From the IMG/VR virus record IMGVR_UViG_2623620491_000017: a stretch of DNA of 19,722 nt. One strand, given 5' to 3'. The position numbers and the translations under genes are program-made. Numbering within the stretch: the first letter of the stretch is position 1; the number at the start of each line of letters is the position of its first letter. This DNA comes from a virus (Duplodnaviria > Heunggongvirae > Uroviricota > Caudoviricetes). The notes under the pieces were generated by a model that saw nothing but the letters and a program-made list of their open reading frames with translations, did not search any database and was not told where the DNA came from. Below are positions 3,014-6,830 of this stretch, one piece after another.

Positions 3014-3237
3014 TGCCGGACAACGTAGATTTTATTCAGGAACAACAGGCTGAATTACTGGAGCGCCAGATTAACGCGGCAAGGGTAAAACATTGCGGTG
3101 TTTCTTCGCTGGTTTGCGAAGAGTGTGATGCGCCAATACCTGCTGCCCGTCGTGCGGCTTATCCGTCAGCCACGCGTTGTGTTTCCTGTCAGTCAGTCTT
3201 TGAAGCAAAAAACAAACATTACCGGAGAACGGCATGA
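3013..3237 (+). CDS. TraR/DksA-family C4 zinc-finger protein (74 aa)
   Basis: Translation contains CEEC-N17-CVSC (CxxC...CxxC), the TraR/DksA-type zinc finger; AAGGAA SD before the ATG. P2 encodes a TraR-like small ORF at this position. Confidence 0.7.
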   Translation: MPDNVDFIQEQQAELLERQINAARVKHCGVSSLVCEECDAPIPAARRAAYPSATRCVSCQSVFEAKNKHYRRTA

Positions 3238-3509
3238 GTATTCGTATTGAAATTGGCGAACGTTATGTCGTTACCAGTGACAGCTTTCAGTTTGTTCTCC
3301 ACGAGAAAAAGAGAGCGGAAAGCGGTAAAAACGCCGGTCAGGAATGGCTGTCGGTGGTTGGTTATTACCCGAAATTAAGCCAGCTCGTTTCCGGCCTGAT
3401 GCATCACGATATTCTGACCGGAAGCGCAAAGTCTTTTGCTGATTTAAACGCGCAGGTTGAGCAACTCAGCAAGCGTTGTTCAGAGGCTTTTGGCTCATAT
3501 GGCCGTTAA
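3234..3509 (+). CDS. Hypothetical early protein (91 aa)
   Basis: GGAGA SD 5 nt upstream of ATG 3234; stop overlaps the A start. Confidence 0.55.
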   Translation: MSIRIEIGERYVVTSDSFQFVLHEKKRAESGKNAGQEWLSVVGYYPKLSQLVSGLMHHDILTGSAKSFADLNAQVEQLSKRCSEAFGSYGR

Positions 3510-5775
3510 AGCCTCCGGGCGTTTTGTCCCTCCGTCAGCATTTGCCGCAGGCACCGGTAAGGCGTTTACCGGTGCTTATGCATGGAACGCGCCACGCGAG
3601 GTCGTCGGGCGCGAAAGACCCCTTACACGTGACGAGATGCGTCAGGTGCAAGGTGTTTTATCCACGATTAACCGCCTGCCTTACTTTTTGCGTTCGCTGT
3701 TTACTTCACGCTATGACTACATCCGGCGCAATAAAAGCCCGGTGCACGGGTTTTATTTCCTCACATCCACTTTTCAGCGTCGTTTATGGCCGCGCATTGA
3801 GCGCGTGAATCAGCGCCATGAAATGAATACCGACGCGTCGTTGCTGTTTCTGGCAGAGCGCGACCAGTATGCGCGCCTGCCGGGGATGAATGACAAGGAG
3901 CTGAAAAAGTTTGCCGCCCGAATCTCATCGCAGCTTTTCATGATGTATGAGGAACTCTGCGATGCCTGGGTGGATGCGCATGGCGAAAAAGAATCGCTGT
4001 TTACGGATGAGGCGCAGGCTCACCTGTATGGTCATGTTGCTGGCGCTGCACGTGCTTTCAATATTTCCCCGCTTTACTGGAGAAAATACCGTAAAGGGCA
4101 GATGACCACGAGGCAGGCATATTCTGCCATTGCCCGTCTGTTTAACGATGAATGGTGGACTCATCAGCTTAAAGGCCAGCGTATGCGCTGGCATGAGGCG
4201 TTACTGATTGCTGTCGGGGAGGTCAATAAAGACCGTTCTCCTTATGCCAGTAAACATGCCATTCGTGATGTGCGTGCGCGCCGCCAGGCAAATCTGGAAT
4301 TTCTTAAATCGTGTGACCTTGAAAACAGGGAAACCGGCGAGCGCATCGACCTTATCAGTAAGGTGATGGGCAGTATTTCTAATCCAGAAATTCGCCGGAT
4401 GGAGCTGATGAACACCATCGCCGGTATTGAGCGTTACGCCGCCGCAGAGGGTGATGTGGGGATGTTTATCACGCTGACCGCGCCGTCAAAGTATCACCCG
4501 ACACGTCAGGTCGGAAAAGGCGAAAGTAAAACCGTCCAGCTTAATCACGGCTGGAACGATGAGGCATTTAATCCAAAGGATGCGCAGCGTTATCTCTGCA
4601 GCATCTGGAGCCTGATGCGCACGGCATTCAAGGATAATGATTTACAGGTCTACGGTTTGCGTGTCGTTGAGCCACACCACGACGGAACGCCGCACTGGCA
4701 TATGATGCTTTTTTGTAATCCACGCCAGCGTAACCAGATTATCGAAATCATGCGGCGCTATGCGCTCAAAGAGGATGGTGACGAAAGAGGAGCCGCGCGA
4801 AACCGTTTTCAGGCAAAACATCTTAACCGGGGCGGTGCTGCGGGATATATCGCGAAATACATCTCAAAAAACATCGACGGCTATGCACTGGATGGTCAGC
4901 TCGATAATGATACCGGTAGGCCGCTGAAAGACACAGCTGCTGCTGTTACCGCATGGGCGTCAACGTGGCGCATTCCGCAATTTAAAACGGTTGGTCTGCC
5001 GACAATGGGGGCTTACCGTGAACTACGCAAATTGCCTCGCGGCGTCAGCATTGCTGATGAGTTTGACGAGCGCGTCGAGGCTGCACGCGCCGCCGCAGAC
5101 AGTGGTGATTTTGCGTTGTATATCAGCGCGCAGGGTGGGGCAAATGTTCCGCGCGATTGTCAGACTGTCAGAGTCGCCCGTAGCCCGTCGGATGACGTTA
5201 ACGAGTACGAGGAAGAGGTCGAGAGAGTGGTCGGCATTTACGCGCCGCATCTCGGCGCGCGTCATATTCATATCACCAGAACGACGGACTGGCGCATTGT
5301 GCCGAAAGTGCCGGTCGTTGAGCCTTTGACGTTAAAAAGCGGCATCGCCGCGCCTCGGAGTCCTGTCAATAACTGTGGAAAGCTCACCGGTGGTGATACT
5401 TCGTTACCGGCTCCCACACCTTCTGAGCACGCCGCAGCAGTGCTTAATCTGGTAGATGACGGTGTTATCGAATGGAGTGACCCGGAGGTCGTGATGGCGC
5501 TCAGGGGCGCATTAAAACACGGACTGAGAACACCAAATCGTCAGCAAAGAAACGGAATCCCGTTAAAACCGCATGAAATTGCACCATCTGCCAGACTGAC
5601 CAGGTCTGAACGATTGCAAATTACCCGTATCCGCGTTGACCTCGCTCAGAACGGTATCAGGCCGCAACGATGGGAGCTTGAGGCGCTGGCGCGTGGCGCG
5701 ACCGTAAATTATGACGGGAAAAAATTCACGTATCCGGTTGCTGATGAGTGGCCGGGGTTCTCGTTACCCATTTGA
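3499..5775 (+). CDS. A: Replication initiation protein A (HUH rolling-circle endonuclease), about 758 aa
   Basis: Translation contains the HUH motif (PHWHMMLF) and the paired-tyrosine motif YIAKYISK typical of phiX174/P2 A-type initiators. Size and position match P2 gpA. Start set at ATG 3499 (MAVKASG...) rather than the upstream in-frame extension from 3457. Confidence 0.9.
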   Translation: MAVKASGRFVPPSAFAAGTGKAFTGAYAWNAPREVVGRERPLTRDEMRQVQGVLSTINRLPYFLRSLFTSRYDYIRRNKSPVHGFYFLTSTFQRRLWPRIERVNQRHEMNTDASLLFLAERDQYARLPGMNDKELKKFAARISSQLFMMYEELCDAWVDAHGEKESLFTDEAQAHLYGHVAGAARAFNISPLYWRKYRKGQMTTRQAYSAIARLFNDEWWTHQLKGQRMRWHEALLIAVGEVNKDRSPYASKHAIRDVRARRQANLEFLKSCDLENRETGERIDLISKVMGSISNPEIRRMELMNTIAGIERYAAAEGDVGMFITLTAPSKYHPTRQVGKGESKTVQLNHGWNDEAFNPKDAQRYLCSIWSLMRTAFKDNDLQVYGLRVVEPHHDGTPHWHMMLFCNPRQRNQIIEIMRRYALKEDGDERGAARNRFQAKHLNRGGAAGYIAKYISKNIDGYALDGQLDNDTGRPLKDTAAAVTAWASTWRIPQFKTVGLPTMGAYRELRKLPRGVSIADEFDERVEAARAAADSGDFALYISAQGGANVPRDCQTVRVARSPSDDVNEYEEEVERVVGIYAPHLGARHIHITRTTDWRIVPKVPVVEPLTLKSGIAAPRSPVNNCGKLTGGDTSLPAPTPSEHAAAVLNLVDDGVIEWSDPEVVMALRGALKHGLRTPNRQQRNGIPLKPHEIAPSARLTRSERLQITRIRVDLAQNGIRPQRWELEALARGATVNYDGKKFTYPVADEWPGFSLPI

Positions 5776-5844
5776 GTAAAAACACAACGTGATTTGATAT
5801 GGCATTGAATGGCTTATGCGGAGCAGTTATGGGGCAGCAGAAGG

Positions 5845-5882
5845 TCAATAGCATGCTGAATTAGAAGGCTAAATGCTATTGA
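5845..5882. repeat. Perfect 10-bp inverted repeat TCAATAGCAT / ATGCTATTGA separated by 18 nt
   Basis: Read directly: 5845-5854 is the reverse complement of 5873-5882. No flanking T-run, so it is not a terminator; a protein-binding site or RNA stem-loop is possible. Confidence 0.5.
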
Positions 5883-5990
5883 GTGACTAGCATGTCGGTA
5901 AGGACAGCCGTTTGATCCGGGTCATAAAAGGCCATCCATTTAGTCTAATAAAATCATTGCGGGTAACCTTATGTCGACGCATAATTCGTC

Positions 5991-6005
5991 TTGAGCGAAG
6001 TCTTG
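5991..6005. repeat. Direct repeat copy 1 (TTGAGCGAAGTCTTG), in the 3' tail of the early operon about 35 nt before the terminator
   Basis: Exact 15-mer also present at 6255-6269 with unrelated flanks. Confidence 0.6.
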
Positions 6006-6035
6006 TCAGTCTTTCATCGTATTGATGATGGGCGC

Positions 6036-6065
6036 AAAAAAACCACCCTGGCAGGTGGTTTTTTT
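6036..6065. terminator. Bidirectional rho-independent terminator (A7-CCACC-ctggca-GGTGG-T7)
   Basis: GC stem 6043-6047/6054-6058 flanked by an A-run (6036-6042) and a T-run (6059-6065), so it can terminate the rightward early (A) transcript and the leftward small-peptide transcript. Confidence 0.7.
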
Positions 6066-6077
6066 GTTTGAAGCATA

Positions 6078-6191
6078 TTAAAGCATAATGCTGACATTGA
6101 TATTACTGACGTTTACTGACAAACCACTCGGACTACCGTTTGGATAGCCAAAGAGGGCCAGAACGAGAATGCAGTAATAGCATTTCTTCAT
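6078..6191 (-). CDS. Candidate 37-aa hydrophobic peptide (MKKCYYCILVLALFGYPNGSPSGLSVNVSNINVSIML); possible small membrane toxin or exclusion peptide
   Basis: GGAGG (reverse complement of 6196-6200) lies 4 nt before the ATG. The N-terminal MKK is followed by about 12 hydrophobic residues and an uncharged Ser/Asn-rich tail. The gene ends 12 nt before the bidirectional terminator and has the orientation of lysogenic-conversion cargo in this slot. No homology search was possible. Confidence 0.45.
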   Translation of the reverse strand: MKKCYYCILVLALFGYPNGSPSGLSVNVSNINVSIML

Positions 6192-6254
6192 ATTGCCTCC
6201 TGTAAGTAGAGGGCAACTTCCACCGGTATATGCGCTTCTTAGGTGGAATGACTT

Positions 6255-6269
6255 TTGAGCGAAGTCTTG
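6255..6269. repeat. Direct repeat copy 2 (TTGAGCGAAGTCTTG), about 65-80 nt upstream of the peptide start codon on the coding strand
   Basis: Exact copy of 5991-6005. Confidence 0.6.
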
Positions 6270-6330
6270 CCCTGAAATAATGCTCTGTTTAAACGCAAAG
6301 TGATTTGGCATATCACCGAACAGAGAGCCG

Positions 6331-6385
6331 GAAAAACACAACATATAGTATGTCGTTGTTTCTAGACATACATTCTATGTTGTGT
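6331..6385 (-). repeat. Long imperfect inverted repeat (arms 6336-6354 and 6365-6385: 10 bp + internal loop + 7 bp) followed on the minus strand by TTTTT; terminator-like insulator or operator
   Basis: Read directly. The arms are AT-rich, so terminator function is uncertain. It sits between cos and the small-peptide gene. Confidence 0.35.
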
Positions 6386-6669
6386 AACAAGGGCTTTGCA
6401 TTAAACATGTTTGAGATTTTATTGATGTAGCTCAAAGTAAAAAACAGAGACTACGGATGATAAGGTCTTGAAAGCAATGTAAATTTTTTAAAGTTGCCAA
6501 TTGCTTAAAAATGTACAGTTGCGGTATGGCGTACTTAAAAAGCTATGCATGCAACAAGTGAATGTTTTTGCATGCGTTGGGGATGTCCGTTCAGGCTGCG
6601 TGCGGTCAGGACTGGTGCGGATCCATAGTATCTATGCAACTGCATTAAAACCGCCCCGTGAAGCGGGCG

Positions 6670-6688
6670 GGCGAGGCGGGGAAAGCAC
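6670..6688. other. cos: cos site: 19-nt cohesive-end sequence GGCGAGGCGGGGAAAGCAC
   Basis: Exact 19-mer that I recall as the P2/186 cohesive end, located about 170 bp beyond the portal gene stop as expected for P2-type genomes. Confidence 0.75.
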
Positions 6689-6830
6689 TGCGCGCTGGCG
6701 GTGGTGCTGATTTTATTTTTTCAGCGTCTGAGCGCGTCGTGATGGCGTTTAGATTGTTCGCCGGGGCGTTGGTGTGTCTGCGGGCTGTTTTGTGCGGTGG
6801 TGAGCGTGTGAGGGCGTGATGGCGGGTTGT

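Follow-up and report, generated by a model that had tools for sequence, protein, structure and literature searches.

What does a P2-like prophage carry between its A gene and its cohesive end when no conventional cargo gene is seen there? The question is raised by a 19,722-nt stretch of Caudoviricetes DNA (IMG/VR record IMGVR_UViG_2623620491_000017; hereafter the window), a P2-like prophage with Q and P on the minus strand beyond cos. The interval concerned, here termed the slot, covers 5776-6669 and is bounded by the stop codon of A (5775), a gene called 'replication endonuclease' in identical Escherichia coli records, and by cos at 6670-6688, where the 19-nt P2 cohesive end GGCGAGGCGGGGAAAGCAC is identical to the annotated cosR of P2. 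An earlier note on this DNA, made from the sequence alone, had proposed that the slot holds a miniature, mostly non-coding module of accessory cargo; it placed the A stop at 5775 and the start of cos at 6670 correctly, the interval being 894 bp rather than the 895 bp given there. Here it is argued that the slot contains a predicted small RNA (sRNA) gene on the plus strand and, convergent with it, a predicted mRNA for a 37-codon open reading frame (ORF) on the minus strand. Such an sRNA/mRNA/small-protein cassette is very probably real and functional, and it probably works, with appreciably less certainty, as a toxin-antitoxin (TA) pair of an undescribed type I TA-like family.

Many E. coli chromosomes, that of strain W among them, have the slot sequence at 99.8-100% identity, and 5776-6512 recurs at 85-88% identity in other P2-like phages. 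Distant copies with 71-75% identity lie in quite different elements and start at ~5945 and end at ~6495, indicating that the functional unit is an accessory cassette of ~550 bp (5945-6495) with two predicted convergent genes. Conservation and covariation could be shown in silico for the small ORF, for both predicted promoters, for the RNA structures and for the complementarity between the two RNAs, as could the mobility of the cassette between unrelated elements. The same P2-like prophage is present at 99.8% identity, as in E. coli W and its derivatives, in NZ_CP026085.1, a chromosome labelled 'DH5alpha', and this strain label is probably wrong.

As had been observed earlier, the slot is AT-rich, with a GC fraction of 0.419 (0.39 for 5945-6495), compared with 0.537 for A and 0.531 for Q, that is 53-54% in the flanking genes. 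It holds a perfect 13-nt inverted repeat (6035-6047 / 6054-6066) with A7 and T7 at its flanks, a perfect 15-nt direct repeat, TTGAGCGAAGTCTTG (5991-6005 and 6255-6269), and several further inverted repeats, notably 6336-6345 / 6376-6385 and the hairpin at 6218-6248. The bidirectional terminator, the direct repeat and the inverted repeats had all been located by the earlier note exactly or to within 1-2 nt. When two mismatches were allowed, TTGAGCGAAGTCTTG matched the window at those two places only, with 0.04 matches expected. The statement that no credible ORF of at least 60 codons exists in the slot holds in substance, if not to the letter: two ORFs of that length touching the slot are called mechanically, 6078..6344 on the minus strand (88 aa) and 6501..6710 on the plus strand (69 aa, TTG start), and neither is credible. 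The 69-aa ORF spans cos and was judged not credible, while the 88-aa ORF was rejected as a gene, being an upstream extension of the 37-aa ORF with in-frame stops in every relative. The description of a compact module likewise stands, with the correction that the DNA called non-coding is made up of the predicted promoters, 5′ untranslated region (5′UTR) and terminator of a two-gene cassette.

By its sequence, the plus strand has the features characteristic of an sRNA gene with its seed at the 5′ end. A putative sigma-70 promoter at 5957..5985 (-35 TTGCGG at 5957-5962, a 17-nt spacer and -10 CATAAT at 5980-5985), preceded by the AT-rich TAATAAAA, would drive a candidate antitoxin sRNA of ~75 nt (5992..6066, plus strand), and the order TTGCnn-N17/18-CATAAT, then the repeat 6-7 nt on, is found in 13/13 family copies though their surroundings diverge. 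The candidate sRNA comprises an unpaired 5′ seed formed by copy 1 of the direct repeat (5991-6005), the stem-loop SL1 (~6009-6033) and a terminator hairpin with a U-tail (6035-6066), and has a minimum free energy (MFE) of -29 kcal/mol (z = -4.0). In the consensus fold of 11 homologues the 17-nt 5′ end is unpaired, SL1 shows compensatory changes in 5/7 pairs, its sequence differing between copies while its pairing stays, and the terminator is invariant. This terminator (6035..6066, both strands; CAAAAAAACCACC-CTGGCA-GGTGGTTTTTTTG) is identical in all homologues bar one loop base in locus L075 and an A/T-run change in L048b. As it is a shared, bidirectional intrinsic terminator, the 3′ ends of the two predicted RNAs would be fully complementary. 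A 22-mer from the terminator, AAACCACCCTGGCAGGTGGTTT, is also found exactly on ~30 very small contigs assigned to the unrelated taxa Streptomyces, Micromonospora, Kocuria, a Chloroflexota metagenome-assembled genome (MAG) and Clostridium (within loci L036-L072), which have no other similarity to the cassette and look like one small ColE1-type plasmid or contaminant.

On the minus strand the predicted mRNA is ~330 nt long and has its 3′ end at this terminator too, used in the opposite direction, with the Shine-Dalgarno sequence (SD) and ORF start ~170 nt downstream of a conserved -10. The 37-codon ORF and its stop codon occupy 6078..6191 (minus strand; MKKCYYCILVLALFGYPNGSPSGLSVNVSNINVSIML), with the SD GGAGG (6200..6196) 5 nt before the ATG, so that the SD-led 37-codon ORF reported earlier is confirmed at 6191..6078. 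A 37-39-aa ORF with ATG and SD is found in 12/12 diverged copies at peptide identities down to ~25%; differences between the window and locus L001 are distributed 2/0/6 over the three codon positions, and distant pairs show 7-12 synonymous codon changes. The third-position bias, the retention of SD and ATG in 12 copies and the breaking of the longer frame in relatives together indicate that the 37-codon ORF is a real gene. The predicted peptide has a hydrophobic, signal-like N-terminal half and a net charge of +2, and the family follows the pattern M-(K/N)-(K/R)-x2-3-C-(I/L)-(L/F)-(V/I)-L-(A/T)-L-(F/I)-G-Y-P-x-G-S-x-S-G-(W/L), after which comes a tail of alternately hydrophobic and polar residues.

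The two predicted RNAs are connected by the direct repeat. Because the genes are convergent, transcription of copy 2 yields the complement of copy 1 as it stands in the sRNA, and this complement forms a predicted sRNA target in the mRNA 5′UTR (6255..6271, minus strand) ~80 nt before the AUG. The distance between target and AUG is 80-82 nt in 8/11 pairs and 86-99 nt in the other three, where the predicted duplex extends further upstream. Cognate seed/UTR duplexes reach -26 to -34 kcal/mol (11 pairs), against -14.1 ± 2.5 for shuffled seeds (best -23). Both repeat copies change together, GAGCGAAGTCTTG to GAGCAAAGCCTTA, such that two repeat classes can be recognised, GAGCGAAGTCTTGCC and GAGCAAAGCCTTACC, which are 3 positions apart, with the copies of one locus always belonging to the same class; a class B sRNA on a class A mRNA reaches -14 to -18 kcal/mol compared with -30 for the cognate pairing. 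Two one-sided changes were seen, a T to C in copy 2 of L013 and a G to A in copy 2 of L049, and both leave a G·U in the sRNA(+)/mRNA(-) duplex. In an Enterobacter MAG (L048:4520-6030) the sRNA and ORF genes are ~900 bp apart, with a 217-aa ORF without a Pfam match between them; the split genes keep matched class B repeats, each with its own terminator copy, which suggests that the pairing works in trans. The energetics, the position of the target, the co-variation, the one-sided G·U changes and the trans arrangement support a functional repeat-mediated interaction between the predicted sRNA and mRNA. A metagenome scan with GATGCAAATCACTAYAT returned 120 loci, of which ~5 were complete cassettes, and no new repeat class. 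Targeting of nrdD by the sRNA was also considered and rejected, no complement of the seed being present in the K-12 nrdD 5′UTR when read by eye.

The 5′UTR appears to be structured both downstream and upstream of the target. A hairpin at 6196..6216 (minus strand), in which UUGCCCUCU (6216..6208) pairs with AGGAGGCAA, is predicted to sequester the SD; it is present in the MFE folds of 3/3 mRNAs inspected (window, Klebsiella and Leclercia), with 70% of cells paired across 12 sequences in an alignment of imperfect register. The hairpin SL-B (6218..6248, minus strand; UUCCACC...GGUGGAA) is 85% paired with compensatory changes in 3/7 pairs, appearing as CCACC/GGUGG, CCGCC/GGCGG or CCUUCAG/CUGAAGG. 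The hairpin SL-A (6283..6325, minus strand; outer stem CUCUGUU/AACAGAG, inner stem GGUGAU/AUCACU) is 95-99% paired with compensatory changes in 5/7 pairs of the outer stem, and in its controls 0/500 shuffles reached the observed values and slid partners gave at most 54% pairing. For the 5′UTR structure as a whole 86.9% of cells are paired, compared with at most 52% with slid partners and 0/500 shuffles as high, and the hairpins contain 12 covarying pairs. A switch model, in which a long-range helix GGUGGC/GCCGCC frees the SD and the sRNA re-locks it, was dropped as constrained folding left SD accessibility unchanged; the helix itself shows some covariation.

This pattern bears on the proposal that the segment is a decaying remnant of recombination at a hotspot, with the direct repeats as scars. 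Many small intergenic remnants are known in P2 defence loci (PMC13586616), and the slot does contain an imperfect 30-nt direct repeat (73%), 5780-5809 just past the A stop and 6291-6320 inside SL-A. Such decay is hardly credible for the cassette, in which purifying selection has preserved the ORF length, both promoters and the stems in copies of 71-100% identity and in different types of element, with changes that are compensatory and not random.

The distribution of the cassette is equally informative on whether it belongs to the P2 backbone. Among 31 P2-like loci from IMG/VR and GenBank four arrangements were found: in ~15 the cassette is followed directly by the cos-proximal backbone, as in the window; ~7 represent a second lineage with 85% identity in which the slot is likewise otherwise 'empty'; and in the third and fourth the cassette is accompanied by 1.7 kb or 2.7 kb of cargo, respectively, the cassette thus being the sole slot content in ~22 of the ~31 loci. 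The accompanying cargo includes a Peptidase_M78/CapP-like gene and genes of unknown function; the product of the former, a 161-aa Peptidase_M78/IrrE-like protein (L001:4136-4621, L002:4137-4622), matches PADLOC capP with E = 3e-28. Outside P2-like phages, copies are found in an N15-like phage-plasmid with repA on one side and the protelomerase gene on the other (L013), in a Kluyvera inovirus prophage with Zot and G2P (L049), in conjugative elements beside traI, a dsbC-like gene and a recombinase (L050 and L048) and on ~400 large conjugative plasmids, mainly Klebsiella IncFIB/FII(K) and also other enterobacterial plasmids; the cassette is far commoner on plasmids of Klebsiella. In P2 itself the slot holds orf91-tin-old and the cassette was not found there, while among 5426 complete E. 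coli genomes a P2-like A gene is present in 1683 and the cassette in ~152, which puts its frequency in E. coli P2-like prophages at ~9%. At a distance of 2 kb from an unannotated cassette on a Salmonella IncF plasmid, PGAP places the gene for a toxin of type I that is DinQ-like (DqlB; L076:5600-5695), and several type I-like loci thus cluster there.

It is against this background that the slot could be regarded as P2 backbone, that is an early-operon terminator and 3′UTR with packaging or regulatory DNA next to cos, in which the presence of ORF and repeat is fortuitous. In favour of this, transcription of the A unit does end at the terminator, and the interval is conserved in some cargo-bearing P2-like phages. 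The reading is nonetheless very improbable, with the segment missing from P2 and from ~90% of E. coli P2-like prophages, with the same 550 bp present in plasmids, the N15-like phage-plasmid and the inovirus, all without P2 genes, and with a pattern of conservation that is that of a coding ORF and structured RNAs. In keeping with this, the earlier view of the slot as accessory cargo is upheld by its absence from P2, by its occurrence in ~152 of the ~1683 E. coli genomes with the A gene and by its non-P2 carriers. That note had also taken the presence of the same interval beside a large cargo gene as a mark of backbone; the interval does occur in such company (L001 and L002), yet backbone status is not implied, the cassette being independent of the neighbouring cargo. 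Comparison among the relatives assigns 5945-6495 to the cassette and leaves 5776-5944 and 6535-6669 outside it. Taken together, the P2-like phages with four slot contents, the N15-like phage-plasmid, the inovirus prophage and ~400 conjugative IncF-type plasmids give the cassette the carrier range of an autonomous addiction-type module.

The two flanks lie outside the cassette. The linker after the A stop (5776..5944, plus strand), the 3′ untranslated tail of the A transcript, is ~80% identical in L001-L003 and is present only in P2-like relatives with the cassette, nothing corresponding to it being found beside the copies in plasmids, in the inovirus or in the N15-like element; the possibility that it is a degenerate second copy of the cassette was rejected, as it has no significant similarity to it. 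At the other end, 6535..6688 (plus strand) is cos-proximal P2 backbone including the cohesive end and is 93-98% identical to the right ends of cassette-less Yersinia and E. coli P2-like phages; no recognisable old-type promoter is conserved near cos. The A ORF as called mechanically starts at a TTG at 3457, while the annotated A of relatives has 2277 nt, placing the start near 3499, which would overlap the end of the preceding ORF (3234-3509).

When would the mRNA be made? A sensitive search matched 6390-6491 of the window at ~79% to the region upstream of nrdD in 5426/5426 E. coli genomes, and the homology with E. coli PnrdDG extends over ~125 bp to include the -10, the FNR box at -64.5 (an identical 14-mer), the -33.5 position and NrdR-box-like 16-mers. 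By this alignment E. coli PnrdDG and the mRNA promoter are paralogous, the 5′UTRs of nrdDG and the cassette being unrelated beyond ~+30. In PnrdDG the published FNR sites 2 and 1 are centred at -64.5 and -33.5 (PMC10425943), and the two aligned sequences, the identical 14-mer TTGAGCTACATCAA and TTGATGCAAAGCAC, are those two sites. With the transcription start site (TSS) placed as in nrdD, the nrdDG-like upstream region of the window with its FNR-like boxes (6391..6491, minus strand) contains the predicted FNR box 2, TTGAGCTACATCAA (6435..6422, centre -64.5), with 9/10 matches, and a degenerate box 1 position (6404..6391, centre -33.5). FNR-like boxes with 7-9/10 matches are present at -64.5 in 13/13 copies and at -33.5 in all copies but that of the window, the 12 other copies and K-12 nrdD having 8-9/10 at both positions. 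Further downstream (6336..6385, minus strand) are the -10 TAGAAT (6377..6372), a hexamer that every copy, and E. coli PnrdDG as well, keeps as TAGAAT or TAAAAT, an inferred TSS at ~6364 and two NrdR-box-like 16-mers, 6385..6370 (13/16) and 6351..6336 (14/16), which jointly form the inverted repeat 6336-6345 / 6376-6385 described above. In L001-type copies the spacer between these boxes is 16 bp, and Klebsiella copies have no box with at least 12/16 matches. Control of the mRNA by FNR is a reasonable inference from these motifs, with control by NrdR a possibility, and an nrdDG-type promoter suggests that the mRNA would be made mainly without oxygen. Where the nrdDG promoter drives an anaerobic ribonucleotide reductase, that of the cassette would drive a 37-aa ORF.

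A more elaborate and quite doubtful extension is that FNR activation and NrdR (dATP/ATP) repression, both borrowed from nrdDG, make the cassette an oxygen- and nucleotide-pool-sensing suicide module. If so, toxin mRNA would accumulate only in anaerobic cells with collapsing deoxynucleoside triphosphate (dNTP) pools, for instance during infection by a competing phage in the gut, and the constitutive sRNA would set the threshold. The result would be abortive infection by a minimal RNA/peptide system in the P2 hotspot, which would in addition keep plasmids and phage-plasmids stable.

The favoured reading, a type I-like TA pair, can be cast as follows. Generic features of type I TA systems found in silico are a small hydrophobic ORF on its own mRNA and an sRNA that base-pairs with that mRNA. 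A sigma-70 promoter of its own would supply the sRNA constitutively, whereas the mRNA would be made mainly in the absence of oxygen, and the SD hairpin would make the full-length mRNA a poor template for translation. Through its 5′ end the sRNA would bind the 15-17-nt site ~80 nt before the AUG, perhaps after contact between the terminator loops as in par, and this binding may block a standby or activating element or trigger cleavage, leaving the peptide untranslated. Were the supply of sRNA to stop, through loss of the element or transcriptional shut-off, the peptide would be made and the membrane damaged.

Several observations weigh against this scheme. The peptide matches no known toxin family in Pfam or in NCBIfam including toxic_TimP, and its C-terminal half is polar and beta-like in place of the classic transmembrane helix with a charged tail. 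Blocking of the target site in silico leaves the predicted accessibility of the SD unchanged. The split into classes A and B may be a single evolutionary event, in which case the covariation would rest on few independent changes. In the copy of the window only 6/10 matches are left in the -33.5 FNR box, and the NrdR-like boxes are out of position and 18 bp apart, compared with the two nrdDG boxes, which overlap the promoter and are 15 bp apart (PMC12176259).

Some of these points would suit a regulated but non-toxic small membrane protein, an anaerobic lysogenic- or plasmid-conversion factor modulating for example a transporter, a sensor or an envelope function; this is rather unlikely, as is its corollary, that the cassette is no addiction or suicide module and the sRNA is only a post-transcriptional regulator, with host mRNAs as possible further targets. 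Conservation of the ORF, pairing by the sRNA and a promoter of FNR type fit such a protein equally well, and the polar, beta-like C-terminal half is atypical of pore-forming type I toxins. It is known that endogenous expression of TimP permits growth, and a toxicity-independent role may exist for that peptide (PMC7667032). What argues for a toxin is a set of hallmarks of toxin control and not of everyday regulation: the predicted tight, multilayer silencing by a sequestered SD, a dedicated constitutive antisense RNA and complementary terminators, the many unrelated mobile carriers and an architecture identical to that of par loci.

The location in the slot has suggested a further function, a minimal abortive-infection or anti-phage system in which the toxin is freed upon host transcription shut-off or collapse of the nucleotide pool. 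The gpA-cos region is a defence hotspot of P2-like phages (PMC9122126) of which the cassette is often the sole content (~22 of ~31 loci), the logic of a short-lived antitoxin would fit, and through its nrdDG-type promoter and NrdR-like boxes the cassette may be linked to dNTP status. On the other side, there is no PADLOC match, the cassette is far commoner on plasmids of Klebsiella and has a further carrier in an inovirus prophage, settings in which a role in maintenance is simpler, and it co-occurs with ordinary hotspot cargo such that it need not be 'the' defence gene. An anti-phage role is judged unlikely, with a type I-like TA pair maintained as the preferred reading.

Searches of databases and literature place the cassette outside described families. 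In Rfam no match was obtained at the gathering threshold across the whole window, with no family among Hok/Sok and other antitoxin RNAs reaching its gathering score; at E<=10 there were only sub-threshold, terminator-driven matches to RNAI (25 bits, 5981-6067) and OrzO-P (21 bits). No model for the peptide was found in Pfam, NCBIfam (both at E<=10), PADLOC or PHROGs. A search of 5.8 billion protein clusters returned 3 mis-extended ORFs, and HMMER against 1.84 billion representative proteins gave 7 matches, all of them family members and all unnamed or 'hypothetical'; the exact peptide has been deposited as 'hypothetical protein ECW_m2278'. Literature searches by sequence, locus tag and topic in 8 million papers found no earlier description, with subscription-only literature outside the search. 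The candidates KpnR_127 and KpnR_128 from dRNA-seq/RIL-seq of Klebsiella MGH 78578 were considered as the cassette sRNA and rejected, as they flank hok, and the cassette was not found in the 134 kb of pKPN3 scanned (136.5-175.9 kb being outside the scan). PGAP leaves the cassette unannotated in the E. coli chromosome matches listed and in nearly all plasmid records shown. The prediction that a tiny peptide/RNA module here would escape ORF-based tools is borne out by these blank annotations and by family libraries that have no model for the peptide.

If the favoured reading is true, the cassette would represent an undescribed type I TA family in enterobacterial mobile elements, reaching ~3% of complete E. 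coli genomes through P2-like prophages and hundreds of clinically relevant Klebsiella IncF plasmids, in a region that is currently annotated as blank or 'hypothetical protein'. In hotspot surveys, which count genes, a slot whose only occupants are an sRNA and an ORF of 37 codons appears empty or is scored wrongly. Its design would combine a par/Fst-style convergent layout in Gram-negatives with two natural, mutually orthogonal seed/target classes, and the two-class repeat with the conserved promoters provides a simple signature for finding more copies. The nrdDG-derived promoter predicts control of the toxin by oxygen and possibly by dNTPs; no report of a type I TA under such control was found in the literature searched, which again excluded subscription-only sources.

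How does the cassette compare with known systems? In E. coli trans-encoded type I TAs the transcription of the toxin is tied to a stress regulon, that of LexA in the case of tisB and dinQ, and in tisB/istR-1, zorO/orzO, dinQ/agrB and shoB/ohsC an sRNA complementarity of ~16-21 nt lies far upstream of the ribosome-binding site (RBS) in a long 5′UTR. The cassette shares with tisB, zorO, dinQ and shoB this short sRNA complementarity far upstream of the RBS in a long 5′UTR, and differs in that the toxins are unrelated, that the sRNA genes are divergent there and convergent here, and that its regulon would be FNR/NrdR and not SOS. The OrzO-P score in the window, terminator-driven as mentioned, is 21 bits against a gathering threshold of 60. 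With the tin/old cargo of P2 the cassette has in common the same gpA-cos slot, AT-richness and variability between relatives (PMC9122126). That cargo is protein-based defence, whereas the cassette is ten times smaller and is found outside P2 as well.

The likeness of the cassette, as predicted, to TimP/TimR (ryfA), a type I TA of Enterobacteriaceae, lies in the peptide and in the mRNA. The peptides are 37-41 aa long with a signal-like N-terminus, M-K/N-x-R-C-x-C-I-V-L, and are encoded by mRNAs of ~300 nt with a long structured 5′UTR that is paired by the 5′ end of a trans sRNA (PMC7667032; PMC11228461). Homology to TimP was not demonstrable. The toxic_TimP model (NF040796) scores TimP at 87 bits and gave no match at E<=10 to four diverged family peptides or to the window peptide, hhalign of the family against TimP gave a weak match with 29% probability over 11 N-terminal columns, the family hidden Markov model does not retrieve the TimP ORF, and Rfam ryfA (RF00126) had no match at E<=10. 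The gene arrangement is also opposite, with TimR divergent and upstream whereas the sRNA gene of the cassette is convergent and downstream, and timPR is a core-genome locus whereas the cassette is carried on mobile elements. Upstream of timP/ryfA in K-12 there are two similar TimR-like segments with terminators (L073:2357-2456 and ~2690-2790), one of which is annotated as timR.

The par (pAD1)/Fst system shows the more extensive likeness in organisation, with convergent promoters, a shared bidirectional terminator giving complementary 3′ hairpins, direct repeats that are transcribed oppositely and give a second complementarity, an SD concealed, in the cassette by prediction, within an intramolecular stem, and a peptide of ~35 aa whose N-terminal half is hydrophobic, the whole carried on mobile elements (PMC7472228). 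It differs in that par belongs to Enterococcus while the host range of the cassette is Gram-negative, and in that the cassette peptide has no match to Fst/Ldr (Pfam and NCBIfam, E<=10), no PXXXG motif and no charged tail. Likewise, the repeats of par lie over the translation start whereas the cassette has a single repeat pair ~80 nt before the AUG, and the cassette has an sRNA of ~75 nt with an extra stem-loop and an FNR-type promoter. On the sequence comparisons made here the cassette is best read as closest to par/Fst in its layout and to TimP/TimR in the type of peptide it would encode.

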